Source of the DNA: an uncultured archaeon | GTDB lineage: Archaea > Asgardarchaeota > Jordiarchaeia > Jordiarchaeales > Jordiarchaeaceae | DNA length: 32,000 nucleotides | Reading direction: 5' to 3' | NCBI GenBank assembly: GCA_964510585.1 | Contig: CAZECW010000004.1 | Span: forward strand, 1-32,000 | Shown: positions 4,933-23,108 of the stretch, piece after piece | Position numbering within the stretch: position 1 is the first letter of the stretch | How the letters are laid out: each line of letters starts with the position of its first letter | Translations under genes and position numbers: made by a program | Notes under the pieces: model-generated | The model's database searches: none | The model's input: the letters and a program-made list of their open reading frames with translations, nothing else | What the model was told of the DNA's origin: nothing

Positions 4933-6663
4933 CTACTCTGGCGGAATTTCGGCATATATGGTAGCCATATCTATACCTATTCTCCTGTTGTGTGCATAGT
5001 ACGCTGCGAAGATTAAACCGCCCAGGCCGAATACGAACACGTTGAGTAGGAATCCCTGCAGAGCCAGTGCTCTTATGGCTGCAAATATTACGAAGGTTGT
5101 GCCGAAGAACGCTATGATACCAGCAATGGTGATGACGGGTATGCGGCCCACTTGCCACTTGAATCCTCTCTCGTAGATTTCTGGTTTAATGTATGGGAAC
5201 AGTATTGCTGCCATAGCTCCGAACCAGAGCATAGTTGTATCCATAACCACAGTATCAAAGGCTGCCATGAAGATGTCGAGTGATGAGAGCAGAACACCCG
5301 CAACGGCAACTATGGCTACTAGTGTGGTTGCCCAAACTGGGCTGTGCCATCTCTCACTAACCTCGGCAAACTTCACTGGGAATGTTCTGTCGAATGACCA
5401 TGCAAAGGTAGTTCTAGCAGCGGTGATAAGGAATGGTGGAATGTCGTTCATCAACCATAGGGCTCCCGCTATGGCAATTAGGAACGCGATAGGCCCTGAA
5501 GCGTATGGAACCTGTAGTGTTGCGTAGAATGGTAACTGGGTTCCTATAGGAGCTGGCCAGCTGGGAAGGGCCCATGGAGGTATCAGCGCCAGGTACATTG
5601 AGAGGTTGTCGCCCCATGCAGCTTGCAGGGCAGCGTATAGACCCGCGTATTCGGGGTTCATTGTGAGGGCCCATGTAATGTCGCTCTGAGCTTCTGCTGC
5701 GACGACGTACACGTTTGCGAAAAGTCCGCTGGTGTTTAGCGCCAGGAAGCTAATTCCAATATAGTATGCCGCAATTATTAGGGTTCCGTAGACTACAGAT
5801 ATTATCATGTTTCTGTTGGGTTCTTTCATCTCGCCGCCCACGAATGTGGATGCGGTGAACCCGATGTAAGCCCAGGTGAGCAGTGCTACTGCGCTGACTG
5901 TGTCATCCATTGGGGTGGTGGCAAGGATACCATTCCAATAGTGAGCGAGGGCTGCTTCAAAGTAGTTGTTGAATAGTCGGGTAAGGGCGTTGTCCAGCCC
6001 TTCACTTGTGATGAAGTCTATGGGGTTAGAGTAGGCTAGGGCGTAGTTGACCATGGCGTTGGCCGTGTTTCCAGTTATCAGGTAAAATATTGTGAAAATG
6101 CTTCCTATTGCTGAGATGATGAGCATGGCATTTAGTACTTTTCCAAAGATGTTTAGTCCAGCTACTGTGACTATGTAGAAGACCACCACCAAAATTATCC
6201 CCACTATTATACCGGCTTCTTTGGACTGCATCCAGGTACCTATCTGGAACAGCCCGTCTGTGGGGACTCGCCCAATGACTTGGAGTCCGAAGCCGAGGAA
6301 GGCGGTGTCCAGGAAGGCGATGATGCCGAAGGATAGTGCCACGGAGACCCACCAGACCCAGCTGCTTAGGAATCCTATGAAGGGACTCAGTGTTCGGCTG
6401 ATGTATACGTAGCCGCCGCCGGATCGGGGCATTGCTACTCCGAACAGGGCGAAGACAACTGCAGCGGATATGGCGGGTATTGCTCCTATGGCGAATGCCA
6501 GTGGTACGTTGGCCAGTGGAAGTGCCGCGGGCGTGTTTACTGAGTATTTGTTGATTCCTCCGCCGATGACGTTGCAGAGCACTATTGATAGGGCGGTGAA
6601 CCAGCCAATTTCACGTACTAGGCCTGTTGCATCTCTTGCGAAGGTTACCTTTTTTGCTCCCAT
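4933..6663 (-). CDS. APC-family amino acid/polyamine permease
   Basis: TFARDATGLVRE N-terminus, NVIGGGI, AMPRSGGGYVYISR, GGEMKEP, and about 12 or more hydrophobic segments. Confidence 0.9.
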   Translation of the reverse strand: MGAKKVTFARDATGLVREIGWFTALSIVLCNVIGGGINKYSVNTPAALPLANVPLAFAIGAIPAISAAVVFALFGVAMPRSGGGYVYISRTLSPFIGFLSSWVWWVSVALSFGIIAFLDTAFLGFGLQVIGRVPTDGLFQIGTWMQSKEAGIIVGIILVVVFYIVTVAGLNIFGKVLNAMLIISAIGSIFTIFYLITGNTANAMVNYALAYSNPIDFITSEGLDNALTRLFNNYFEAALAHYWNGILATTPMDDTVSAVALLTWAYIGFTASTFVGGEMKEPNRNMIISVVYGTLIIAAYYIGISFLALNTSGLFANVYVVAAEAQSDITWALTMNPEYAGLYAALQAAWGDNLSMYLALIPPWALPSWPAPIGTQLPFYATLQVPYASGPIAFLIAIAGALWLMNDIPPFLITAARTTFAWSFDRTFPVKFAEVSERWHSPVWATTLVAIVAVAGVLLSSLDIFMAAFDTVVMDTTMLWFGAMAAILFPYIKPEIYERGFKWQVGRIPVITIAGIIAFFGTTFVIFAAIRALALQGFLLNVFVFGLGGLIFAAYYAHNRRIGIDMATIYAEIPPE

Positions 6664-10269: not shown

Positions 10270-10421
10270 ATCCCCTCATTTTTTATTAATTGATAATGAT
10301 ATAAGAGATTTTGCACCCTCCTAATTTTGAGTCTGGGCCTTAGCCAATGATTCCGTAGTCCCGTACCTATATTTTTGGAGGGTTCAATAGAGAAAAGGAG
10401 GAATGGTGCGGAGGACGAGAT

Positions 10422-10452
10422 GTGTTCAGGGGGTAGCAGGCTACCACCGCCT
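10422..10452 (-). other. 31-nt BHB tRNA intron, T-loop position 58/59
   Basis: Central helix GUUC/GAAC with 3-nt bulges AA|A and AC|A, plus an internal hairpin GGUAG/CUACC. Removal restores the T-loop TTCAAAT. Confidence 0.9.
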
Positions 10453-10468
10453 TTGAACTCGTGTAGGC

Positions 10469-10498
10469 CTATGTGAACTCCCAGATAACTGGGGGTTT
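10469..10498 (-). other. 30-nt tRNA intron in the variable-arm loop (GUAG|GCC)
   Basis: Central helix GCGU/ACAU (3 of 4 pairs), bulges AG|A and AG|G, internal hairpin CCCAG/CUGGG. Removal restores the Leu variable arm. Confidence 0.82.
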
Positions 10499-10512
10499 CT
10501 ACGCCACAGGAG

Positions 10513-10543
10513 CTCTGATACGCGAGTGATTGGAAATCGCAAA
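10513..10543 (-). other. 31-nt canonical 37/38 BHB tRNA intron
   Basis: Central helix CUGA/UCAG with bulges GG|U and AG|C, closed by the anticodon stem CAGGA/UCCUG. Confidence 0.93.
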
Positions 10544-10560
10544 CCTCAGTCCTGCTCCAT

Positions 10561-10589
10561 GCCAGTCAAATCCCTGAGGGGACGACATT
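10561..10589 (-). other. About 29-nt D-loop tRNA intron (near 20b/21-21/22; boundaries uncertain by 1-2 nt)
   Basis: The insert must be removed to pair the D-stem TCCG/TGGA. Only a relaxed BHB can be drawn (AGGU/ACUG, 3 of 4 pairs). Confidence 0.75.
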
Positions 10590-10647
10590 TGACCTGGCTC
10601 GGAAACCTCCGCACATATATTGACAAAATAGGATTACACTGAACCAG

Positions 10648-10661
10648 TTTTTATAAGTTTC
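10648..10661 (-). promoter_or_regulatory. Candidate BRE/TATA box for tRNA-Leu(GAG)
   Basis: Minus strand reads GAAACTTATAAAAA about 36-49 nt upstream of the mature 5' end. Confidence 0.45.
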
Positions 10662-10882
10662 TATGATAGGTAACGATATGATGCGTTATGCCTGTATTTT
10701 TCGTGTTTTAAGGGGGATAGCATATTATTAAAAAATTTTTGGAACACCATTTTTTAAGGGGAAAGTTCAAAAGGAAAATGTATAAAAATTATAGTGCATA
10801 TCCATTTTGTGTGGTAGAATTCGTCTGAGCGTAACAATTTATTTAGGGTATTTGGAATGTGCAGGGATTTCCGAGTGGTCAA

Positions 10883-10903
10883 TACCCAGCTGTGGTTGGC
10901 TAT
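10883..10903 (+). other. 21-nt D-loop tRNA intron (21/22)
   Basis: Central helix GGUC/GGCU (with G-U pairs) and bulges AA|U and AU|A. Removal restores GGTCAAAGGAG. Confidence 0.82.
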
Positions 10904-10933
10904 AGGAGCTGGGCTTAGGACCCAGTGGCGTAG

Positions 10934-10965
10934 TGGTGTCGGTCTGTTTTGGTGGCGCCGCGTAA
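10934..10965 (+). other. 32-nt BHB intron in the variable-arm loop (GUAG|GCC)
   Basis: Central helix GCGU/GCGU (4 pairs including G-U), bulges AG|U and AA|G, intron helix GGUGUC/GGCGCC. Confidence 0.9.
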
Positions 10966-10982
10966 GCCTTCGCGTGTTCGAA

Positions 10983-11012
10983 AAGAGGCATCAGATTGAT
11001 GCAGCTCGATAG
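10983..11012 (+). other. 30-nt T-loop tRNA intron (59/60)
   Basis: Central helix UUCG/CGAU (3 pairs plus U-U), bulges AA|A and AG|U, internal hairpin GCAUCA/UGAUGC. Removal restores TTCGAAT. Confidence 0.85.
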
Positions 11013-11099
11013 TCACGCTCCCTGCACCAATTTTTAAAAGTGGGTATGTGCTCTGTTTATTTGGACTGTGTAGTCTTTATTTTTTGGGGTTTTTGTTTG

Positions 11100-11909
11100 A
11101 TGGTGGTTGTTTTGGATAAGCGTATTGATAGGATTGATCGCAAGATTGATAAGGGTAGGATTAAGAAGAAGCGTTCTGAGGATTTGGAGACGACGCAGGC
11201 GGTTATTGATAAGAGGACTGCTATGATTTTGTATGATTTGATTAATAGGGGTTATTTGGATAGTATGAAGGGGGTTGTGGCTTCAGGTAAGGAGTCGAAT
11301 GTTTATTGGGCGACTGCTGAGGAAAATGGGGTTACTCGAGATTTGGCGGTTAAGATTTATAGGACTTCGACTATGGATTTTAAGAGGATTTGGGTTTATA
11401 TTCAGGGGGATCCTCGCTTTACCAAGGTTAAGAGGGATACGCGTTCCATTGTTTATGCGTGGGCTGAGAAGGAGTTTAAGAATCTTAGGTTGGCGGATGA
11501 GGCGGGTGTTAGAGTTCCTAAGCCCGTTGTTTGGAGGGGTAACGTTCTTGTTATGGAGTTTATTGGTGAAAATGGAGTTTCTGCTCCTAGGTTGAGAGAG
11601 GCGATGGTTGAGGATCCGGAGCCTGTTTTCAAAATTGTTTTTGATTATGTTGTTAGGCTTTATGAGAAGGCGGAATTGGTGCATGCGGATCTTAGCGAGT
11701 ATAATATTTTGTACTGGGATGAGCCGGTAGTAATTGATGTTTCTCAAGCGGTTCTCCTAAGTCACCCTTTAGCATTAGATTTTTTGGCTCGTGATCTAAA
11801 GAATATTTTAAGATATTTTTCAAGTTTAGGGGTGGAGGTTCCCTCCCTAGAGGAAGCATATAAAAAAGTTACGGGTGAAGAATTGGTTTGGAGACAAGAG
11901 AGTTTATAA
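11100..11909 (+). CDS. rio1: RIO1 serine/threonine kinase
   Basis: VASGKESNVY, AVKIYRTS, HADLSEYNIL and VIDVSQAV. ATG at 11100 preferred over the ORF-track start at 11040. Confidence 0.95.
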   Translation: MVVVLDKRIDRIDRKIDKGRIKKKRSEDLETTQAVIDKRTAMILYDLINRGYLDSMKGVVASGKESNVYWATAEENGVTRDLAVKIYRTSTMDFKRIWVYIQGDPRFTKVKRDTRSIVYAWAEKEFKNLRLADEAGVRVPKPVVWRGNVLVMEFIGENGVSAPRLREAMVEDPEPVFKIVFDYVVRLYEKAELVHADLSEYNILYWDEPVVIDVSQAVLLSHPLALDFLARDLKNILRYFSSLGVEVPSLEEAYKKVTGEELVWRQESL

Positions 11910-12469
11910 AAGTTCCGAAAGAGCGGGTGGCAGTTATCATAGGTTCAAATGGACAGGTTAAATCCATGATTGAAAGGGAAACTAAAACAAGGCTAGACAT
12001 CAATAGTGAAGATGGCAGCATAGTTATCACTCCAACTGAGGAAACAGATGATCCTTTAGCGGTTTGGAAGGCTAGAGATATTGTGAGGGCTATTGGCAGA
12101 GGCTTCAGCCCCACAAGAGCCCTTAGACTCTTGGATGAGGGGGAACTGCTGGAAATTGTGGATCTCACACTTTTCACCAATAAATCTAAGAATTCTCTGA
12201 CCAGAATTAAGGGTCGGATTATAGGCGCCGGAGGAAAAACGAGAAAAATTATAGAGGAGATCAGCGGTGCCAATATATCAGTTTACGGGCACACAGTGGC
12301 CATAATAGGGAATGTTGAGCAGGGCAGAATGGCTAAGGAAGCGATAATGATGCTGATTAAGGGTGCCCCCCACTCAACAGTTTATAGTGTCCTCCAGAAG
12401 AGAAAAAGGGCCCAAAAGAGAAAATGGACCTCTTGGAAGACATTGGGAGAAAATCAAATCGGAAGCTAA
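11888..12469 (+). CDS. dim2: KH-domain pre-rRNA processing protein Dim2/Pno1
   Basis: Two KH GxxG motifs (IIGSNG, IIGAGGKTR) and KARDIVRAIGRGFSP. Follows rio1. Confidence 0.93.
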   Translation: METREFIKVPKERVAVIIGSNGQVKSMIERETKTRLDINSEDGSIVITPTEETDDPLAVWKARDIVRAIGRGFSPTRALRLLDEGELLEIVDLTLFTNKSKNSLTRIKGRIIGAGGKTRKIIEEISGANISVYGHTVAIIGNVEQGRMAKEAIMMLIKGAPHSTVYSVLQKRKRAQKRKWTSWKTLGENQIGS

Positions 12470-12470
12470 A

Positions 12471-12788
12471 TCAAATTCCCTTCAGATAACCATTATCCTC
12501 AAGCCACTTTGCCTGCCCTTTAGAGTATCTCCAAATTATATCCGCCCTGTCATCCTGAAAGTCCCAAGGGGCAACAATGACGACGTCACCTTCTTTGATC
12601 CAGACACGTTTCTTCATTTTTCCTCTTATTCTGCTGAGTCTAACTTTCCCATCGGTGCACTTTACTTGAAGGCGATCGTAGCCCATCATTTTGACCACTA
12701 TTCCAAGAATTTCGCCCTGTCTTGGAGTGCGAACCTTCCTAAATTCGCCTTCGTCTTCTTCTATGAGGTCTTTTTTCTTCGGTGTCAC
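12471..12788 (-). CDS. eif1a: Translation initiation factor aIF-1A
   Basis: RLSRIRGKMKKRVWIKEGDVVIVAPWDFQDDRADIIWRY. Confidence 0.96.
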   Translation of the reverse strand: MTPKKKDLIEEDEGEFRKVRTPRQGEILGIVVKMMGYDRLQVKCTDGKVRLSRIRGKMKKRVWIKEGDVVIVAPWDFQDDRADIIWRYSKGQAKWLEDNGYLKGI

Positions 12789-12892
12789 AATTTCAACCTT
12801 CTTTTAGTCCCTTAAGAATACGTTTCCGTTCTTTTAAAATTTCCTAAAGGACTGATGGGAATTGTTAGGTTTCCTAGAGGAGGTGTCGATTA

Positions 12893-13960
12893 TTAAGTTT
12901 CTGGTGAGAGGATGGTTATTTCTTCGTCTATTTTTATTGCTTGTACTATTTCTCCTTCTTTAAGGTTTGTGTGGGTTTGCTCCCTTTTTATTTCGGTTAT
13001 TTCGTATGTTTTTAGGTCCATTAGTTGGATGGTGTCTTTAGTTTTGGAAATTATGAGGTATTGTTTTGTTTCTGGTTTCCAGCTTTGTATTTCTGATTCC
13101 CAGAAGTCCTTGTACTGTATGATTTGTTTTTCTCCGGTTTTGGGGTTTTTTCCTATTATGTTGCCTTTTTCTATTTTTTCGAATATGAGGGTTTTGTCCA
13201 TTAATTGTATTATCTCGCCTGGCGTGAAGGAGGGGAGTCTCACTGATACTGATGTTGTTCCTTTCTTTTTTCCATCCTTCATTCCGGACAATTTGAACGA
13301 TTCTTGGATGTTTGCTCCCATTTGTTCTTTTGTGGATGTGGCAATGTTTTTCGCGAGTCCAGTTGAGCTAACGTAGAGGTCGAAGCCTTCTTTTTTCTCC
13401 TTTATTTGGGGTATGTACTCGTCTTTGTATCTTTCAGATTCGAGGGCTTTGTCTATTATTTGGTAGATTTGTTGTCTCTCTTCTTCGCTTATTCTGCCTC
13501 TTAGCCCTCTGAACTGGACTATGGCCTCGTAGGCGCCTTGCTTTTTCTTGGTGCAAATGCCGCAGGGTGAAGATTCGAGTTTTATGGTGACTTTGACTGT
13601 TTCACTGATGGTAGTATCGTTTTTTTTGGCGGTTATTAGAATTGGAACATCGATTTTTCCTGTTAATTCCACTTCTTCTGCTATTTGGGGTTGTATAATT
13701 ATTTCAAATTCTGGTGAGTGTTTTATGAAACGCGGTGAGTTCTGCTCTATTACTATCTCTAAGAATTCATTCGGGTTAAAGCTATTGGTTTGCACCCACT
13801 TTTTGGAAAGCTTGTAACTGTAACAGTGTGGGCAAATTCTCACTTCAAACTCATGTTTAACAGTGAATGGGGGATTCTTCTTGAGGTAACATGATTCACA
13901 GAGGTTTTCAATCAGAGGGGCATCTGTTTTTCCACATAGCGCACAGAATCTTTTTGTCAT
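12893..13960 (-). CDS. nmd3: NMD3 family ribosome biogenesis protein
   Basis: FCALCG..LCESC, ICPHC, CGIC and YEAIVQFR, plus a C-terminal OB/eIF5A-like region. Confidence 0.92.
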   Translation of the reverse strand: MTKRFCALCGKTDAPLIENLCESCYLKKNPPFTVKHEFEVRICPHCYSYKLSKKWVQTNSFNPNEFLEIVIEQNSPRFIKHSPEFEIIIQPQIAEEVELTGKIDVPILITAKKNDTTISETVKVTIKLESSPCGICTKKKQGAYEAIVQFRGLRGRISEEERQQIYQIIDKALESERYKDEYIPQIKEKKEGFDLYVSSTGLAKNIATSTKEQMGANIQESFKLSGMKDGKKKGTTSVSVRLPSFTPGEIIQLMDKTLIFEKIEKGNIIGKNPKTGEKQIIQYKDFWESEIQSWKPETKQYLIISKTKDTIQLMDLKTYEITEIKREQTHTNLKEGEIVQAIKIDEEITILSPET

Positions 13961-13987
13961 TTACATGTTACCTCATAAAGTATGAAT

Positions 13988-14305
13988 CTACATAATTACT
14001 TTTTGTGCGTGGGCTACGCCTTCAATTTTTATGATTCCTTGGGGGGGTATTAGTCCCTCAATTATGGCTTGGGAAACAATGTTGTTGCCAACTATGTTTA
14101 TTATGGTTCCCTGTTTGATTGCTGCTATGCCCTCCTCTATTGAGACCAGCTCACCACAATAAAATTCCTTTTTCACCTCTATTTTGAGCTTGCCTTCTCT
14201 AAAGGTTTTTCCCAATATATCCTCGTCGCAAACAGCAACCATAATTTCATTATTTACTCTCCTTATATGAAGGTAGACTCGCATCTTAAAGCTCTCCTTA
14301 CTCAT
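13988..14305 (-). CDS. DUF424 family protein
   Basis: MVAVCDEDILGKTF..V..EFY.GE and IINIVGNNIV. Start at 14305 or 14284 avoids an overlap with aIF2beta. Confidence 0.85.
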   Translation of the reverse strand: MSKESFKMRVYLHIRRVNNEIMVAVCDEDILGKTFREGKLKIEVKKEFYCGELVSIEEGIAAIKQGTIINIVGNNIVSQAIIEGLIPPQGIIKIEGVAHAQKVIM

Positions 14306-14330
14306 TATGGTAGGTGGCTTTAAAGCAACT

Positions 14331-14741
14331 CTATTGTATGGTTTTGATTGATGCTCTTGCTCCGCAGGCTTCACACACAAGGAAGTGGAATCTATCCTGT
14401 TTTTCAATGTGGGTGTCTGGCTTTCCACACTCGGAACAGAGAACGTAGGTGTGGGTGTATCTGGATATTAGTTCATCAAGAGCCTTGTTTGTAAACTTTC
14501 CCTGGAAAATCGCTCTCTGCCCTTCTATAATACCTGCGGTTGCCAACTCCCGCATAAGATACTTCATTAAGTGCTGAGGGTCTCTATTCAGAGCCGAAGC
14601 TATATCTCTAAAGTTTCTAACAATTGTCCTGTTTCCCTCAACAAAAATTACTGATTTGGGGATCTCAAATCTTTTGCGTTCAAAAACTTCAGGGGGTAAC
14701 TGTTGACGTGCTCTATCTAATAGACGCTCATAGTTTTCCAT
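14331..14741 (-). CDS. eif2b: Translation initiation factor aIF-2 beta subunit
   Basis: YERLLDRAR, NRDPQHLMKYLMRELAT and the zinc ribbon CSECGKPDT..CEACGA. Confidence 0.96.
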   Translation of the reverse strand: MENYERLLDRARQQLPPEVFERKRFEIPKSVIFVEGNRTIVRNFRDIASALNRDPQHLMKYLMRELATAGIIEGQRAIFQGKFTNKALDELISRYTHTYVLCSECGKPDTHIEKQDRFHFLVCEACGARASIKTIQ

Positions 14742-14761
14742 TACACAACCACCTCGAGTTT

Positions 14762-15433
14762 TTAGAGTTTCCTGTAAGTCTGAGGCCTAGGCTCATAAAT
14801 TGTTCCATCAGACAACAACTCTGTGAGGCCGGACTCTAATTCTTTAAGTGATAATCCAGTTTCCTTCTTTATGACTTGGAAATCCACTCCTTCACCTTCG
14901 TCAAATTTTTCGATAACTTCCATAATGCGGGTAATCTTACTGGCCAAGTCTTCTTCAGGTACAGTTTTATCTTCTTCAGATACTCCAATTTCTTCTTTTA
15001 GAGTACTAGTCTCACCTATAGGTTTTAACACCATTAACTCCAATTCTCTAACAATTTCCCAATTGGGATCATCAACATTTATAACAAGTTCTGGGACTAA
15101 ATAAACCTCGCCCCGATACTCTTTAACCTTACCGATAATGTCTACTATATCACCAATCTGAACCTTATTAATAGGGGAATTCTGATTCTTCCAGAACTTA
15201 GCCCTAATTGTTTCGGTACCGTCATCAATGGTAATGCTACCAAAGTCTGATTGAGAGCTGATAAACTTGTCGACCACAGTTCCCATAACCCTAGCCCTCT
15301 GAATCTCTAATCCTGAACCAGTAACAATAAACCGCCCATTAGGTTTTTCCACCCACTTACCATTAACCAGATCCGAAATGTGTACCTTATACGCGGTGGC
15401 CCTCTTTTTAATGATTCTACTCAACTCCATCAC
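14762..15433 (-). CDS. rpa2: Replication protein A subunit, RPA2/RPA32-like (OB fold plus C-terminal winged helix)
   Basis: RATAYKVHISDL, ITIDDGTETIRAKFW and the C-terminal GTIYEPRP. Confidence 0.85.
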   Translation of the reverse strand: MMELSRIIKKRATAYKVHISDLVNGKWVEKPNGRFIVTGSGLEIQRARVMGTVVDKFISSQSDFGSITIDDGTETIRAKFWKNQNSPINKVQIGDIVDIIGKVKEYRGEVYLVPELVINVDDPNWEIVRELELMVLKPIGETSTLKEEIGVSEEDKTVPEEDLASKITRIMEVIEKFDEGEGVDFQVIKKETGLSLKELESGLTELLSDGTIYEPRPQTYRKL

Positions 15434-15532
15434 TCTGAAAATTCCTTACAGTTTAACATCTTTATTCTACACATTCCAGAACGATTTCCAATAAGCATTA
15501 ATTTGGAATCTTAGGGGGTGGATTTTGAACGT

Positions 15533-16393
15533 TCAAAAAAACTGAACGCCATAAATTTTTTCTGGAAGTTCCTTGTTAACTTTCCAAAGTCTATCCTTTA
15601 AATCTTCTTGCTCTCTTAATTGATTTACCAACTTGGGTACAGATTTTGGTCCCAGCACCGCCCCCGGCCTCTTGGGATCATCAAGGTAATCAGTTTCGAG
15701 GAGGAAGCGGTCTCCCTCCTTAAACGCAGCTTCAACATTTTTCCTAGATGCAATTAGGGAGGGAAAAATTTTTTCGCGTTCACAGATTCTAATTAATGGT
15801 GGACAAAAATGCTTTATTACCCTACAGGGGCTCAAGTTAGATTTTCGTACCATGCCAGATAATTCAATTATTTCTTTTTCCCCTACACTTTCTGTATGAA
15901 GCTGTACCGCGCATCCACAATCCCTAGCCCTTCCAAGAGCGTAAAGTAATATTTCATTTGAGATTTCCCAAATTTCGGGACTTACCTGATAGTGAGGCCG
16001 CCCCACCTCCCCAATGGCTATCGCTCTCCCCTCCTCAATCCATTTTACCGCTATGTCCAAACCAGCACATATAAGCTCCTTGGCTTTTCTTATTTCCATT
16101 CCTCTATCTAACATCTGAGTTAGTTCAGCTGGGTGAACCCCTATGACACCATAGGCATAAATATTGAGAGACCTAATTTTTTCCACACAATCAGAAACAT
16201 AACTGTAACAGGTTTCATAATCTGAAGCCTTTGAAACAGTTACACCATAGCTCCACGAGGGCAGACAAACTATAATTAGGGCTGTACCCCCAGCTCTCTT
16301 GAATTCTTTTCCAATGTTCACAGGTCCAAGACCTTTAACTGGATTAATGTGCATATGGTTATCCGTGGCGGGAAAACTTTGCATATTCATCAC
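15533..16393 (-). CDS. TatD-family metal-dependent hydrolase
   Basis: DNHMH, IGEVGRPHY, QLHTE and LETDYLDDPKRPGAVLGP. Confidence 0.9.
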   Translation of the reverse strand: MMNMQSFPATDNHMHINPVKGLGPVNIGKEFKRAGGTALIIVCLPSWSYGVTVSKASDYETCYSYVSDCVEKIRSLNIYAYGVIGVHPAELTQMLDRGMEIRKAKELICAGLDIAVKWIEEGRAIAIGEVGRPHYQVSPEIWEISNEILLYALGRARDCGCAVQLHTESVGEKEIIELSGMVRKSNLSPCRVIKHFCPPLIRICEREKIFPSLIASRKNVEAAFKEGDRFLLETDYLDDPKRPGAVLGPKSVPKLVNQLREQEDLKDRLWKVNKELPEKIYGVQFF

Positions 16394-16626
16394 ACACGCA
16401 GCTATTCAAATTCTCTTGAAAATAGTAGCGCGAGAAAATTTAATATTTGTTATTTATCAGCATTTTTTACCAAACGTTTAAAACAGCCCTGTATCATCGT
16501 TCTGATAACGAGAACACGATTCCGAAGACATTTTTACATATGGGAATGTTTGTTCCAAAAGGTTCTTAAGAAAAAGTATTGTTGCTACCTAAAACAAGGT
16601 TACTTATTTGTTCGAGGTGGTAGAGT

Positions 16627-18636
16627 TTGAGTAGGATGCTGATTACTTCCGCGTTGCCCTACGCTAATGGTGACCTTCACATAGGACATGTTTCCAGCAC
16701 ATATATTCCCGCTGACGTCTATGCGAGATTTTGCAGATTAAAAAAACACGACGTGGTTTTTGTATGTGGAAGCGACGACCACGGGACACCAATTTCAGTT
16801 GCAGCACGCGAAGCAGGACGCACCCCCCTCGAACATGTGGATTATTATCGCGAAAGACAACTAAATGATCTTAAAGCATTAAACATAAGTTTTGATAACT
16901 ATTATAAAACTCACAGCGAAGAAAACCGAGAAATAACAGAATACTTTCTCCTAAAACTGAGGGAAAAAGGCTACATCTACCAGAAAGAAGTGAACGAGTT
17001 CTACTGCGAGAAGGACAAAACCTACCTTCCCGATAGAATGATAAAAGGCACCTGCCCCCACTGCGGAGCAGAAGACCAGTACAGTGATGCATGCGAAGTT
17101 TGTGGAAGAACAATTGAACCAGGAGAAATACTTAAGCCCTACTGCATTCTATGCGGCAATCCTCCAGTAACCAAAAGGGAGAAACACTTCATATTCAAGC
17201 TCAGCGTATTTTCCGAGAGATTATACCAATGGTTAACATCGGACAAAACAGGTAAAAACTTTCCTAGAGATGTTGTAAACTACGTACTTCAATGGATAAA
17301 ATCGGGACTCCAAGACTGGGACATCACCCGAGAGGACTACTGGGGATTCAAACTACCATACCCTGATGCAAAGGAAAACCAATACGTGTATGTATGGTTC
17401 GATGCACCCATAGGGTACATAGCTTCCACAATTAATTGGTGTAGAAAAAATAAAGCAAACTGGGAGGATTACTGGAAGAGGGAAGATAGTTTCATCACTC
17501 ATTTCATTGGTAAGGATATAATATACCACCACTTTCTTTTTTGGCCAGCCATGCTTATGGGAACCGAGGAAATAACGCTCCCCAAAAAATATGTGGTGAA
17601 CGGATACCTCACCCTCGAAGGTTTAAAGATGAGCAAAAGCCGAAAATGGCTGATTCCCCTAAACTACATTTTGCAAAAATACCCGGCAGATTATGTAAGA
17701 TTTTATCTGGCCTTCAAAGCCGCAAACACCATAAAAGACAATAACTTCAGCTGGGAAGAATTTCAAGAAAGAATAAACGGAGACCTTGTGGACAACATTG
17801 GAAACTTCATCCATCGAATTCTCCACTTCATCAACAACCGATACGACAGCAAAATACCAGAACCCTCAGATTTCGACGAACAGGACAGAGAATTTATCCA
17901 ATTAATTCAAACCGCCCCCGACGAACTCGCCACATATTATGAAGAATGCGACCTCTCAAAAGCCATCAAAAGAATAATCGAACTCTTCAAATTTGCCAAC
18001 AGCTACTTCTCAGCAAAAGAGCCCTGGAAAACCATAAAGGAAAACCCTAAACAAGCAAAAAATGCACTCTACCTCTGCGCCAACTTCCTCCTCTCATCAT
18101 CCATACTCCTTTATCCAATAATACCCCAATCAGCAGAAAAACTCCAAAAACTACTAAAGATAAAACCTGAAAATTGGGACACCGCAAAAGAGCTCCTACT
18201 AAAACCCGAACACCAAATCCAGAAAGCAGAACCCCTATTTGAAAAAATTCCAAAAGAAGAAATAATAAAAGAAATAGAAACACTAAAACAACAAACAGAA
18301 CAAGCAGGAAAAAAAGTAGAAGTAGACATCAGCGAATTTAACAAGCTAGACATAAGAATAGGAGAAATAATCTCCGCAAAACAACTACAAGGAGACTTAA
18401 TCCACATAATTGTTAAAACAGAACCCAACAGGCAAGTAAACATAGTAGGCAAACTCGGAGGAAACTACAAACCCCAAGAACTATATGGTAAAAAAGTGAC
18501 AGTGATAACAAATCTGAAACCAAAAAAAGTTCAAGGAATACTATCAGAAGGCATGCTCCTAGCAGCAATAGACGGAGAAAAGATATCACTAATAGTACCA
18601 GACAAGGATATCGAAACGGGAAGCAAGGTTAAATAA
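16627..18636 (+). CDS. metG: Methionyl-tRNA synthetase with C-terminal tRNA-binding domain
   Basis: TSALPYANGDLHIGH, zinc knuckles, YVWFDAPIGY, KMSKS and a C-terminal Trbp111-like domain. Confidence 0.97.
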   Translation: MSRMLITSALPYANGDLHIGHVSSTYIPADVYARFCRLKKHDVVFVCGSDDHGTPISVAAREAGRTPLEHVDYYRERQLNDLKALNISFDNYYKTHSEENREITEYFLLKLREKGYIYQKEVNEFYCEKDKTYLPDRMIKGTCPHCGAEDQYSDACEVCGRTIEPGEILKPYCILCGNPPVTKREKHFIFKLSVFSERLYQWLTSDKTGKNFPRDVVNYVLQWIKSGLQDWDITREDYWGFKLPYPDAKENQYVYVWFDAPIGYIASTINWCRKNKANWEDYWKREDSFITHFIGKDIIYHHFLFWPAMLMGTEEITLPKKYVVNGYLTLEGLKMSKSRKWLIPLNYILQKYPADYVRFYLAFKAANTIKDNNFSWEEFQERINGDLVDNIGNFIHRILHFINNRYDSKIPEPSDFDEQDREFIQLIQTAPDELATYYEECDLSKAIKRIIELFKFANSYFSAKEPWKTIKENPKQAKNALYLCANFLLSSSILLYPIIPQSAEKLQKLLKIKPENWDTAKELLLKPEHQIQKAEPLFEKIPKEEIIKEIETLKQQTEQAGKKVEVDISEFNKLDIRIGEIISAKQLQGDLIHIIVKTEPNRQVNIVGKLGGNYKPQELYGKKVTVITNLKPKKVQGILSEGMLLAAIDGEKISLIVPDKDIETGSKVK

Positions 18637-18929
18637 CCAAAAAACCGAAAAACCAATCCACCTCCAACTATAATCAAAAATTCAAGATTACACCAACTTT
18701 CGACACAACATCCATGAATAGGAGCTTACCCAGTTTATTCCCAAATCAAAAAACTTTACTTTCAGCAGCTCCTCTCCTCCCAAAGACCCACCTGCTACCT
18801 AAAAGATAAAACTACTCATCACCCATCATGAAAGTTTTTCATCGTCAAAAAAACACAACCAAAGAATTCGCAAAAGTGAATAAGGAAGGAATGATTTCAA
18901 AAACAAATCGTAATCGAGAATATTGAAAA

Positions 18930-19850
18930 TTATACCCATTCTTGGAAAACAACACTGGAATGGGTATCAATGATATCCTCTATTTCAAAAATTTTCAGTA
19001 AAAGCTGGTTATAATGCCTAATATCCTTAACCCTAACTACAGCCATTAAGCCATACTCCTCGCCAGTCCGATAAATGCTACGCACCTCATCAAACTCGCA
19101 CAATTTTTTAGCCACGGAAAGATAGGCTCTGGGATCTACACTAATTTCTAAATAGAACTTTGCATCCAAACCAATGGCAGAAAAGTCCACTTTTGCGGTA
19201 TGACCAATAATTACATCTTCACTTCGAAGTTTGGAAATTTTCCTAGAAACTACGGATTGCGAAACACCCAGCCTCCTAGCCAACTCTGTTTGAGAATAAG
19301 GCATAGGACTGGTCTGCTGTCTAAGGAGGCTAAGCAGCTTCCAATCAAAATCAGAAACAGGGTAATAATCGATTTTCGAGTCGGGAACAACAAATCCAGA
19401 CTCTTTAAACGTGGTCAAAATCTCCACTAAACGATACTTCTTAAACCTTGAAACCACCATCAAGCGATCAAGCCCAGAAAGAAATGAAGAAAAATCCGAA
19501 GGAAACCTGAACCGGTACAAACCCAAAAGAGAAAACTCCCCCGAAATTCCATCCAACACTTGAATCTGAGGAAGACCTAACAGGCCCCTAACCACATCAT
19601 ACTCGTGAGGATTCGTCTTAACAAAAAGAAAAATACTACGATCAAATAATATCTTCAAGGGATTCAAAATAACAGAATACCCCCTCAAAACTCCCCTCTC
19701 AAACAACCCATTAATCACCCTAGCAACATAATTTCGGCTTTTCCCCAGCCTCTCCGCCAAATTCTTCACACCGAGAGAAGAATCCTTCAACAAAAGATTC
19801 AAAACCGCCTCTTCCAAAGCATCTAACCGCATAAAAACCACACAAAACAA
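18930..19850 (-). CDS. Tandem (double) Lrp/AsnC family transcriptional regulator
   Basis: Two HTH plus effector-domain repeats (LAERLGKSRNYV.. and ELARRLGVSQSVV..). Confidence 0.85.
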   Translation of the reverse strand: MFCVVFMRLDALEEAVLNLLLKDSSLGVKNLAERLGKSRNYVARVINGLFERGVLRGYSVILNPLKILFDRSIFLFVKTNPHEYDVVRGLLGLPQIQVLDGISGEFSLLGLYRFRFPSDFSSFLSGLDRLMVVSRFKKYRLVEILTTFKESGFVVPDSKIDYYPVSDFDWKLLSLLRQQTSPMPYSQTELARRLGVSQSVVSRKISKLRSEDVIIGHTAKVDFSAIGLDAKFYLEISVDPRAYLSVAKKLCEFDEVRSIYRTGEEYGLMAVVRVKDIRHYNQLLLKIFEIEDIIDTHSSVVFQEWV

Positions 19851-19949
19851 GCCGATTTAAAAGCAAATTATGACAAACAATATATATAAACTTTATAAGT
19901 TTACCCCACAAGAAGAAAAACAAAAACACCACAATGGGAGAAAAAAATT

Positions 19950-21320
19950 ATGGCACAAACACAAAAAGGAGATAAGTACGAAGTCAAAGACCTAAAACTA
20001 GCACCAGGCGGACGAGCAACAATCGAATGGGCAGAATCAAGAATGCCCGTACTTATGCAAATAAGAAAAAGATTCCAAAAAGAAAAACCACTCAAAAACA
20101 CCATAGTAGGAGCATGCCTCCACGTAACAAAAGAAACAGCGGTACTTGCAAAAACTCTAAAAGCTGGAGGAGCAGAAGTCTACCTTTGCGCCTCAAATCC
20201 CCTATCAACACAAGACCATGTAGCCGCGGCACTAGTAGAAGAAGGAATAAACACATTCGCTTGGAAAGGCATGGACTACGAAGGCTACTACCGAGCAATA
20301 GCCAACGTTATTAAAGGAGAACCGAACATCACACTAGACGACGGCGCCGACCTAGTATCAACCCTAATCAAGCTAAAAAGAGGAGAAACTGGCGAGGAAA
20401 TCAAAATAGTCAAGAAAATTCTCGGAAGCCGTACAGACTGGGCGGACAAAGTATGGGCCGGAGCCGAAGAGACCACAACCGGCGTAATCCGCCTCAGAGC
20501 CATGGCAAAAGATAACGTGCTATTATACCCAATTATAGCTACAAATGATACCCCCACGAAATGGGAAACATAAACACCACCCGTGTTTAAGCCCAAATTT
20601 GACAACTTGTGGGGAACTGGACAAAGCACCATAGACGGTATACTAAGAGCAACAGCAGACCTCATCGCGGGCAAAATTTTTGTAGTTGCAGGATACGGTC
20701 ACTGCGGTAGGGGTGTAGCGCTAAGAGCAAAGGGACTAGGAGCGAGAAGAGTCATCATCTGTGAAATAAATCCCCACCGAGCACTAACAGCCGCCTTAGA
20801 GGGCATGGAAGTAATGCCCATGAGCGAAGCCGCTGAGGTAGGAGACATTTTCGTAACCGCCACGGGATGCAAGAATGTTATAAATGCTGAACATATGAAA
20901 AAGATGAAAAACGGGGCAGTAATGTGTAACACAGGCCACTTTAATGTGGAAATAAATATACCTGATTTGGAAAAAATAAGCGTCAGCAAGAGAGAAATAA
21001 GACCACTAGTCGATGAGTACACACTGGAAGATGGAAGAAAAATCTATCTGCTCGCCCAAGGCAGGCTCGTGAATCTTGCATGTGCCGAAGGACACCCAAG
21101 CGAAGTTATGGACATGAGCTTTTCGGATCAGGCTTTGGCTGTGGAGTGGATTGTTAAGAATAAGGATAAGCTGTCTGGGATGGGTAGTGTGGTTTTGGAT
21201 ATTCCTGAGGAGATTGATAGGACTGTTGCAGAGTTGAAGTGTAAGGCTATGGGTCTTAGATTGGATGTTTTGACCCCAGAACAGGAAGCGTATTTGTCAG
21301 GTTGGGCTGAAGGAACCTAG
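19950..21320 (+). CDS. ahcY: S-adenosylhomocysteine hydrolase, join(19950..20567,20598..21320), 446 aa after splicing
   Basis: [27 protein letters not shown] and LAQGRLVNL. The two ORF-track pieces are in the same frame, and removing 30 nt restores [18 protein letters not shown]. Confidence 0.93.
20568..20597 (+). other. 30-nt BHB intron in ahcY mRNA
   Basis: Central helix UGGG/CCCA, bulges AA|A and AA|U, intron stem UAAACAC/GUGUUUA. Contains an in-frame TAA. Confidence 0.88.
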
Positions 21321-21469
21321 TTCTTACTTTCCTATTTTTATTTTTGTTTGTGTTTTTGGTGGCTTTTTGTGGGTCTTTGGCTTTTTGGTTTTTTGTTATT
21401 GCGGAGTTCAGTCTTTATTGGGGCTTTTTTCTCTTTAAAATTGATAAAGAAGCTCTAGTTGGCTTGCCT

Positions 21470-21796
21470 TTAAAGTAGGAATAGAAGTGTTATTGGGGTA
21501 GGGTTCTGGGTTAGCCATTGGTTTACTAGCTGGTGTAGGTAGATTCCTATGTATTGGGTTACTCCGCCCGAAATTTCGATGATTATGGGGATAATAAGGT
21601 GCCACTTGGAGGAAACTCCTATTAGGAGGAGGCTTATCATTATTCCTACTAGGTAGGAGAGACGGTGGTGTGAGATGGTGAGCAGTGCTAGGTTCAGGAC
21701 GAGCATACCTACTCCAATCATTAGTAGTATGCCAAAAATTGTGTTGAGCAGATTATAGGTCAGAGGGTTGGTAAGAAGCCAGTAAACATCTATCAT
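21470..21796 (-). CDS. Hypothetical small membrane protein
   Basis: 108-aa hydrophobic ORF filling the ahcY-tyrS gap, with GAGAGGA upstream of the ATG. No family recognised. Confidence 0.5.
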   Translation of the reverse strand: MIDVYWLLTNPLTYNLLNTIFGILLMIGVGMLVLNLALLTISHHRLSYLVGIMISLLLIGVSSKWHLIIPIIIEISGGVTQYIGIYLHQLVNQWLTQNPTPITLLFLL

Positions 21797-21976
21797 GGGG
21801 ATCCTCTCTATTGTATTTTTGTGAAGGAAAGGATATGAACCCCGCGAAAATTAAAAGGCTTGGTTTCATTTTTTGGGGATGTAGGAAAGTTTTAATTACG
21901 TTTTTATGATTAGGTTCTGCAGATATTTATTTGGCAGTTGATTGTTGATGTTTGTGGTTGGATGTTGATGATAATT

Positions 21977-21982
21977 GGAGGA
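21977..21982 (+). promoter_or_regulatory. Shine-Dalgarno site of tyrS
   Basis: GGAGGA ends 7 nt before the ATG at 21990, which supports the upstream exon as the true start. Confidence 0.7.
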
Positions 21983-21989
21983 GAATCTG

Positions 21990-23108
21990 ATGGATACTGA
22001 AGAAAAGGTTCAGCGTGTCTTACGTGGCTTGAGTGAAGTTATCACTGTCGAGGATCTACGGAATTTATTTGAGGTAGACAACCACCCTAAGGCTTACATA
22101 GGTGTTGAGCCTTCTGGATAAACCTTTTAGGCTTTCTAGGGTTCCAGAATATTTCATTTGGGCTGGGTGGTTTGGGCTTGGAAGGTTCAGGATTTGATTC
22201 TTTGCGATGTGGATATGCATGTTCTCGAAGCAACTTGGCATGCGAAGATTAACGACAAATTTGGTGGAAACATGAATACCATACACACCTGTGCAAAGTA
22301 CATTGAACACTGTTTACAAGCGTTGGGTGTAGATATTAGCAGGGTTCATTTTCCAAAGGCTGAGGATCTTATGGATAGTTTGGATTATTGGGCGACAGTG
22401 ATAAACATTGCTAAAAACACTACGCTGGCCCGCATTAAGAGAGCTATGAGCATAATGGGCCGCAAAGTAGATGATGCGGAATCTGATTATTCAAAAACAC
22501 TTTATCCTTGCATACAGGTAGCTGACATCTTATACGCCGGTTTTAAGCTGTGTCTGGGCGGAACCGACCAGAGAAGAGCTCACATATTGGCGAGGGAGTT
22601 GGCTCCTAAGTTCGGCTTGGATTGGAAGCCGGTAGCTATTCACACACCTCTCCTCATAGGCCTAGAGGGATTATCAAGGATGGAGTTTGAGGATATGAGC
22701 GAGGATGTTTTAATGGAGGCCAAGATGTCGAAATCCAAACCTCAAACAGCAATTTTTATACATGATAAGCCAGAGGAAATTAGGAGTAAAATTTCTGCTG
22801 CTTTTTGCCCACCGAAACAGGTAGAATTCAATCCAATAATGGAAATAAATAGGCTTCTTCTCTTTTCCAGAGAAGGTTTTACTCTTCATGTAGAACGTGA
22901 GGAAAAATTTGGAGGAGATATAGATTTTGAGAGCTTTGATGAATTGAAATCTGCTTACAGCGCCGGTAATCTTCATCCTCTGGACTTGAAACGGGCTACT
23001 GCGGAGGCCCTCATTGAACTGTTGAAAAATGTTAGGCAACATTTTGAAAAGAATAGTGAAGCCCGTAACCTTTTGGAAACATTAAAAAAGGCTACAGTAA
23101 CCCGGTGA
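21990..23108 (+). CDS. tyrS: Tyrosyl-tRNA synthetase, join(21990..22119,22150..23108), 362 aa after splicing
   Basis: Exon 1 MDTEEKVQRV..KAYIGVEPSG joins to give PSGLFHLGW (HIGH motif). Also YPCIQVADI, GGTDQRRAH and KMSKS. Confidence 0.93.
22120..22149 (+). other. 30-nt BHB intron in tyrS mRNA
   Basis: Central helix CUGG/CCAG, bulges AU|A and AA|U, intron helix AACC/GGUU. The unspliced frame has three stops (TAA, TAG, TAG). Confidence 0.9.

Follow-up and report, generated by a model that had tools for sequence, protein, structure and literature searches.

The window analysed here is the first 32 kb of a contig (C4, CAZECW010000004.1) of G000, the metagenome-assembled genome (MAG) of an uncultured Asgard archaeon of the Jordiarchaeia (GCA_964510585.1). 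Our analysis indicates, with a probability of about 0.9, that the short inserts splitting two of its protein-coding genes, ahcY for S-adenosyl-L-homocysteine hydrolase and tyrS for tyrosyl-tRNA synthetase, are archaeal bulge-helix-bulge (BHB) introns, of the same class as those in the neighbouring tRNA-Leu genes and spliced by the endonuclease EndA and the ligase RtcB. The mRNAs of these split genes must then very probably be cut and re-joined before translation. Predicted introns of this kind form a population of at least ten in G000, and members of it also occur in another genus of the order.

The proposed mechanism is as follows. Before splicing, a 4-bp helix would form between the 3′ end of exon 1 and the 3′ end of the intron, with a 3-nt bulge on either side, one per strand, while the remaining intron would fold as a hairpin. 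A heterotetrameric (alpha-beta)2 EndA would cut each bulge behind its second base. RtcB would then join the 2′,3′-cyclic phosphate end to the 5′-OH end, and the reading frame would be restored, so that the full-length enzyme would be made from the spliced mRNA only.

Predicted short introns in ahcY and tyrS

The inserts in the window were examined with a strict BHB test, which required four of four central helix pairs and two 3-nt bulges, and which is passed by 7.4e-4 of random position/length pairs in G000. The initial annotation had listed nine inserts in tRNA genes and mRNAs, with lengths of 31, 30, 31, about 29, 21, 32, 30, 30 and 30 nt and all with BHB-type ends. All nine are present and the series matches the plus-strand order; seven passed the strict test, and the other two, both tRNA introns, are relaxed, with three of four pairs.

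The two exons of ahcY lie in one frame and the insert falls at position 216 of the AdoHcyase profile. The tyrS insert lies between EPSG and HLG of the class I signature motif. When intron-less homologues were used as queries for tblastn, 10-residue gaps were found exactly at both inserts (the homologues read TKWE-FDN and EPSG-L(F/H/M)H). The strict BHB search, which is independent of the homologue alignment, gave one solution of the right length per site, and all four pairs of each central helix were Watson-Crick. Cutting after the second base of the bulges turns ahcY into ...TPTKWE/FDNLWG..., which is the sequence seen in intron-less homologues, and tyrS into EPSG/LFHLGW, where homologues read LFHVGW or LFHIGW. 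The junction peptides predicted from splicing include ...TPTKWEFDNLWG... and ...GVEPSGLFHLGW....

We compared six independently assembled genomes of the genus, G000 included, and searched 24 other genera as outgroups. G000 is a draft MAG of 3.78 Mb in 217 contigs, 96% complete and with an estimated contamination of 4.8%; its methionyl-tRNA synthetase has 94-95% identity to Candidatus Jordarchaeia MAGs and 82% to G005 (CP147778, Candidatus Freyarchaeota SRVP19_Freyarchaeia-1), the closed 3.58-Mb chromosome of the genus set, which places it in the Jordarchaeia/Freyarchaeia group of Asgard archaea. Stop-containing inserts were found at both the ahcY and tyrS sites in all six genus genomes, while in the 24 other genera searched no insert was found at either site and the genes were continuous. 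The split genes are retained across the six at 80-98% protein identity, the closed chromosome included.

The ahcY insert has lengths of 30, 30, 30, 27, 29 and 29 nt in the six genomes, and the tyrS insert is 30 nt long in all but one, where it is 31 nt. The lengths thus differ by non-multiples of 3, a variation that no translated segment would tolerate. The earlier statement that both inserts are exactly 10 codons long and contain stops therefore describes G000 itself, but the length does not extend to the relatives (27, 29 and 31 nt). In the genus alignments, length changes were confined to the hairpin loops and the flanking codons were conserved. The 4-bp helices were invariant within the genus, and the hairpin stems changed on one side only, with pairing kept if wobble pairs are included.

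In G005 (C1:1875988-1877601, locus L013), ahcY matches in four pieces covering residues 1-185, 177-216, 202-387 and 384-456. This suggests that the gene may carry further interruptions beyond the one shared with the window.

Features of the window and introns found elsewhere. Plain coordinates are those of the window; contig handles refer to G000 unless G006 is named. Helix, bulge and junction entries are predictions.
Feature	Location	Strand	Evidence or structure
tRNA-Leu(GAG), encoded CCA, four introns	10404..10612	-	ARAGORN: 88-nt tRNA-Leu(gag) once inserts removed
T-loop intron, 31 nt	10422..10452	-	helix GTTC/GAAC, bulges AAA and ACA, 4/4 pairs
Variable-arm intron, 30 nt	10469..10498	-	excision restores GGC-GUAG-GCC arm; 3/4 central pairs
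Anticodon-loop intron, canonical 37/38, 31 nt	10513..10543	-	helix CTGA/TCAG, bulges GGT and AGC, 4/4
D-loop intron, 29 nt	10559..10587	-	helix GTCA/TGGC (one G-U pair), bulges AAT and ATG
tRNA-Leu(UAG), encoded CCA, three introns	10861..11029	+	ARAGORN: 86-nt tRNA-Leu(tag) once inserts removed
D-loop intron, 21 nt	10883..10903	+	helix GGTC/GGCT (two G-U pairs), bulges AAT and ATA
Variable-arm intron, 32 nt	10934..10965	+	helix GCGT/GCGT, bulges AGT and AAG, 4/4; h' 4/4
T-loop intron, 30 nt	10983..11012	+	excision restores 7-nt T-loop; 3/4 central pairs, relaxed motif
ahcY exon 1	19950..20567	+	Pfam AdoHcyase profile 1-216 of 299, E 2e-47
ahcY mRNA intron, 30 nt, contains TAA	20568..20597	+	helix TGGG/CCCA, bulges AAA and AAT
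ahcY exon 2	20598..21320	+	Pfam AdoHcyase_NAD, E 3e-56; AdoHcyase profile 216-286
tyrS exon 1, ending ...GVEPSG	21990..22119	+	tblastn with intron-less homologues
tyrS mRNA intron, 30 nt, three in-frame stops	22120..22149	+	helix CTGG/CCAG, bulges ATA and AAT, h' 4/4
tyrS exon 2	22150..23108	+	NCBIfam NF006330 tyrosine--tRNA ligase, 356.9 bits (cut-off 220); Pfam tRNA-synt_1b
rtcB intron, 30 nt	C58:3762-3791 (locus L188)		BHB, just before conserved AHQGYGFPIGG motif
POR-alpha intron, 33 nt	C72:43796-43828	-	strict BHB
MoaE intron, 27 nt	C140:43123-43149		strict BHB
Alba intron, 30 nt	C20:52144-52173		strict BHB
ArsA/Get3-type ATPase intron, 29 nt	C157:45009-45037	-	strict BHB
hypD intron, 28 nt			CGGG/CCCG helix; junction KFVHICG/THEQ
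ppsA intron, 29 nt			GAGG/CCTC helix; junction SASAED/LPGASFAGQQETY
rpl44e in-frame insert, 33 nt			between GYGSQPK and PIQKRFAKTTKK
G006 Alba paralog insert, 27 nt	G006, one of C2:123972, C3:304891, C1:996248		KPT/M site as in G000 Alba
G006 insert, 27 nt	G006, one of C2:123972, C3:304891, C1:996248		in protein reading ...WAYFRK/YYPDWAPP...
G006 insert, 30 nt	G006, one of C2:123972, C3:304891, C1:996248		small GTPase-like protein

Further predicted mRNA introns and candidate splicing enzymes

The initial annotation had proposed that split genes be aligned genome-wide to intact homologues and their insertions scored for BHB geometry. Our census used G006, a 2.14-Mb genome of a sister genus in the same order in which ahcY is continuous, and whose full genome was compared. 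It combined a tblastn search of G006 open frames against G000, a BHB-first scan with blastp across the junction, and local tblastn re-alignment. The result was positive: seven robust mRNA introns survived in G000. The seven each have four Watson-Crick central pairs, every bulge starts with A, and all seven junctions equal the intron-less homologues residue for residue. Besides ahcY and tyrS, the junctions after the second bulge base read LPD/AHQGYG, YPI/TPQT, IW/KKEY, KPTM/SYV and FGG/KGGVGKT. A strict BHB was present at the homology-defined site in six of six in-frame, stop-containing inserts, against the background of 7.4e-4. Further BHB-bounded inserts thus occur elsewhere in the genome.

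Three genes missed by the census against G006, hypD, ppsA and rpl44e, show that seven is a lower bound. For rpl44e the strict BHB filter listed no motif and only the insert was confirmed. The mRNA introns verified in G000 are therefore ten (ahcY, tyrS, rtcB, Alba, POR-alpha, MoaE, ArsA-type ATPase, hypD, ppsA and rpl44e). The earlier idea that the tRNA-splicing machinery splices mRNAs in this lineage is supported by this comparative evidence, but "routinely" is too strong for ten verified cases in a genome of ~3.8 Mb. The same holds for "many apparent pseudogenes".

Length variation within the genus was also found outside the window, in POR-alpha (33 or 28 nt), MoaE (24-27 nt) and rtcB (30 or 29 nt). 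All six genus genomes have the rtcB intron, which was not found in any other genus searched. The ArsA gene of G005 lacks the 29-nt intron exactly at the predicted boundaries (...GGTGG/CAAAGG..., still encoding GGKGG), and this natural intron-less allele has the very sequence predicted for the spliced product. A reverse census of G006 gave at least three BHB-bounded, stop-containing inserts of its own, which indicates that mRNA introns are not confined to one genus.

Other searches added no introns. Fourteen more candidates from the BHB scan with blastp proved to be continuous genes on local tblastn, ArsA excepted, and where pairs of high-scoring segments lay in different frames, most reflected subunits that are fused in one genome and separate in the other, or noise. 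A reference-free scan (strict BHB, open-frame fusion and hexamer coding potential) gave a small excess at 28-30 nt only; it was swamped by adjacent genes and alternative frames, and no genome-wide count was therefore taken from it. A short-motif search of G000 for kae1 recovered no intron, and the TruB_N match of G000, which represents cbf5, had no internal stop over profile positions 17-149.

The enzymes that would carry out the splicing are encoded in G000. Two full-length EndA paralogs were found, in the regions C157:27039-27287 and C126:19921-20181; they score 108 and 80 bits, and each has both the N and the C domain. In alignments to two-unit EndA models, one paralog covers the second, catalytic half and the other the first, structural half, with a weak match to beta-subunit models. 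This half-and-half pattern is that of an (alpha-beta)2 enzyme, and we infer from it that the two paralogs assemble in this form. An (alpha-beta)2 EndA with a broad substrate range has been assigned to Asgard and TACK archaea (PMC5829648). The nuclease domain of Ire1 (PF06479) had no match in G000, nor in any of 14 control genomes; the search in G000 is thus uninformative.

RtcB was also found (578 bits), and its own gene carries a BHB intron. The synthesis of new RtcB would then depend on RtcB already present, and the intron may constitute a feedback loop, a simple self-referential circuit for study. In two other Asgard genera (G013 C38:129362-132358 and G034 C1:1558207-1561179), the N- and C-terminal parts of RtcB are ~1.5 kb apart within one open frame of ~1000 aa. 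This interruption looks like an intein and not a BHB intron.

RNA contigs and alternative explanations

Three sequencing runs (X10, X11 and X12) contained small shares of the window ahcY; for the ahcY locus of G005, no RNA run containing it was found. The contigs of X10 and X11, which are labelled metatranscriptomic and were flagged as probably DNA, carry both introns unspliced. As these runs are probably DNA, their contigs say nothing on splicing. In X12, a true RNA-Seq run, no contig crossed an exon-exon or exon-intron junction, with the exception of one circular tyrS contig. This contig (249 nt, depth ~26) has identical first and last 30 nt and runs from 22150 to 22338 and then from 22120 to 22179, which gives a closed 219-nt cycle, 22120..22338. 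The cycle comprises the tyrS intron and the first 189 nt of exon 2, and its 219 nt equal 73 codons. Its join begins exactly at 22120, the predicted tyrS 5′ splice cut, as would be expected if EndA left a 5′-OH there and a ligase of the RtcB type sealed it. Since it is one contig and comes from a relative, it was counted only as a hint that the tyrS 5′ site is cut in vivo.

Several observations weigh against BHB splicing of these mRNAs. No exon-exon junction was seen in RNA, where the available runs contained only small shares of the genes. The 22338 end of the cycle lies in exon 2, and a fold of 22095-22365 gave no BHB pairing 22120 with 22338; this end does not fit a BHB, so that excision of the intron alone does not account for the cycle. 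In the tyrS motif, the outer helix between the exons is weak, with one of four pairs beside the bulge. No double compensatory change was found in the helices among the six close genus genomes, a shallow sample, and structural covariation is therefore not demonstrated. The motif, the fit of the junctions to homologues, the conservation and the enzyme genes were observed here; cleavage and ligation in vivo are predicted from them.

The inserts might instead be passed over by the ribosome, without any cut in the mRNA, as in gene 60 of phage T4, where ribosomes hop over a 50-nt gap. In favour of such bypassing or recoding, they are short hairpins with stops near their 5′ ends, in essential genes. 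However, inspection of the junction sequences showed no matched take-off and landing codons beside the inserts, and a separate hop would be required in each of ten unrelated genes. The BHB motif also predicts the junction to the base, and the inserts share the exact geometry of 4-bp helix and 3-nt bulges with the adjacent tRNA introns, which ribosomes cannot bypass. We regard bypassing as very improbable. It is still harder to credit that the genes are pseudogenes or assembly artefacts with chance insertions. Gene callers do see in-frame stops in them, and G000 is a metagenome-assembled draft with the fragmentation and contamination given above. But the same inserts occur in six independent assemblies, one of them a closed chromosome; searches of G000 gave a single match each for ahcY, tyrS and rtcB; the exons are conserved while the intron loops vary; and a strict BHB at all six homology-defined inserts is far from the background rate.

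A third explanation accepts that EndA cuts these sites but holds that it does so mainly as a switch or decay signal, so that the introns would be regulators and not passive passengers. Splicing could be conditional, like that of HAC1/XBP1, or cleavage could mostly destroy the mRNA, like the decay initiated by TSEN in yeast; both outcomes have been described for this enzyme family in a review (PMC10485636). Most verified introns lie in central genes (tyrS and rpl44e in translation, ahcY in the methyl cycle, Alba in chromatin), the rtcB mRNA would need RtcB protein to mature, and a stable circular by-product with exon sequence was seen for tyrS. On the other hand, the ArsA intron is dispensable in G005, and the positions are largely lineage-specific, as expected of neutral gain and loss. 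The bias towards conserved motifs may reflect no more than homology detection and a requirement that the exon part of the motif be stable. We consider this explanation unlikely, although less so than the two above, and favour ordinary BHB introns removed by EndA and RtcB. A broader form of the favoured reading, in which gene expression in Jordarchaeia/Freyarchaeia would regularly involve protein-catalysed mRNA splicing, with tens of core genes needing EndA and RtcB, the ligase controlling its own mRNA, and stable exon-containing circles, is put forward tentatively, at somewhat short of even odds.

tRNA-Leu genes of the window and related systems

No tRNA was found in the raw window by ARAGORN or Rfam, even with E up to 10, and an Rfam scan of the whole of G000 gave 7 tRNA matches only. 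Removal of the introns at the bulge cuts gave cloverleaves accepted by ARAGORN for both tRNA-Leu genes. The tRNA genes of the initial annotation are thus both real, but the first, tRNA-Leu(GAG), lies on the minus strand; when 10404-10613 was read as plus-strand RNA, no tRNA was found. Five of the seven tRNA introns scored four of four central pairs with 3-nt bulges. The two relaxed ones, the variable-arm intron of tRNA-Leu(GAG) and the T-loop intron of tRNA-Leu(UAG), reach three of four pairs in the register from which the mature tRNA results. As TAG occurs at both ends of the former, its boundary is ambiguous. A blastn search of G006 with both tRNA-Leu genes did not find an intron-less copy of the 10404-10612 tRNA.

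The 3′ CCA is encoded in both genes (at 10404 and 11026-11029). The D-loop introns of both genes are found at the same position, following GGUCAA(A).

Nearly all tRNA genes of G000 are interrupted by introns of ~30 bases, and tRNA finders overlook nearly all of its tRNAs. In Freyarchaeia and Atabeyarchaeia, 92-95% of tRNA genes have been reported to contain introns, over half of them several (Valentin-Alvarado 2024, PMC11291895), and a 2026 preprint re-censuses these introns (bioRxiv 10.64898/2026.10.13.758758). The 7 genome-wide Rfam matches and the three and four introns of the window tRNAs fit the published proportion. The tRNA introns of Freyarchaeia/Atabeyarchaeia and of Thermoproteales are of the same size class (~20-32 nt), with the same motif and predicted enzymes, and the lineage is the same. 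Removal of tRNA introns restores cloverleaves, whereas removal of the G000 mRNA introns would restore reading frames. Neither PMC11291895 nor the preprint 10.64898/2026.10.13.758758 mentions protein-coding introns, and "mRNA" is absent from the text of the preprint.

The proposed mechanism is the one known from the cbf5 pre-mRNA intron of Crenarchaeota, which occurs in Aeropyrum, Sulfolobales and Desulfurococcales (Watanabe 2002; Yoshinari 2006; Yokobori 2009, PMC2738675). Like the introns predicted in G000, it is short, BHB-bounded and placed in an archaeal coding sequence, with lineage-specific gain and loss; it is cut by a hetero-oligomeric (alpha-beta)2 endonuclease, the type predicted for G000, and re-ligated. 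However, it affects one gene per genome, in another phylum, and its motif has been described as relaxed. In G000, at least ten genes are concerned, cbf5 not among them, mostly with strict motifs of 27-33 nt and in an Asgard host. A second archaeal case is the HVO_1309 mRNA of Haloferax volcanii, which the tRNA splicing endonuclease cleaves at a BHB and which is then ligated again (PMC7714728, PMC10485636). This is a single case with an alpha'2-type enzyme. Its site is close to the 5′ end and is not known to interrupt a conserved catalytic motif.

The initial annotation had taken eukaryotic HAC1/XBP1 splicing as the established parallel. That system is similar in that proteins remove a short mRNA intron independently of the spliceosome and a tRNA ligase (RtcB in animals) does the joining, but it relies on the Ire1 endonuclease and on paired stem-loops instead of a BHB, and it is stress-regulated. 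The crenarchaeal cbf5 intron, cut by the same endonuclease family, is the closer parallel. A 2023 review counted "at least two archaeal genes" with such mRNA splicing (cbf5 and HVO_1309) and held more to be likely (PMC10485636). In the full-text literature we found no report of BHB introns in Asgard protein genes, with incomplete coverage that leaves novelty not proven. What is new here is the occurrence in this lineage, how many genes of one genome are affected, the strict form of the mini-introns and the presence of an intron in the ligase gene.

One Asgard genome thus has such introns in ten or more core genes, among them those for an aminoacyl-tRNA synthetase and for the RNA ligase that would join the exons. 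Gene callers split or truncate genes of this kind, which can therefore be read as broken or missing, and this may distort metabolic reconstructions and marker-gene completeness estimates of Asgard MAGs. Protein-only mRNA splicing in close relatives of the eukaryotic ancestor also becomes a testable idea. If the broader reading given above is true, split protein genes and a spliceosome-independent pathway that cuts and ligates mRNA would already have been present among the archaea related to eukaryotes. The link to eukaryogenesis drawn in the initial annotation is speculation.

Elsewhere in the window, positions 6112-6130 weakly match (E 7.9) the 5′ end of sR32, an archaeal family of C/D-box sRNAs (UGAGAUGAUGAGC...), and this segment could be an unannotated C/D sRNA.

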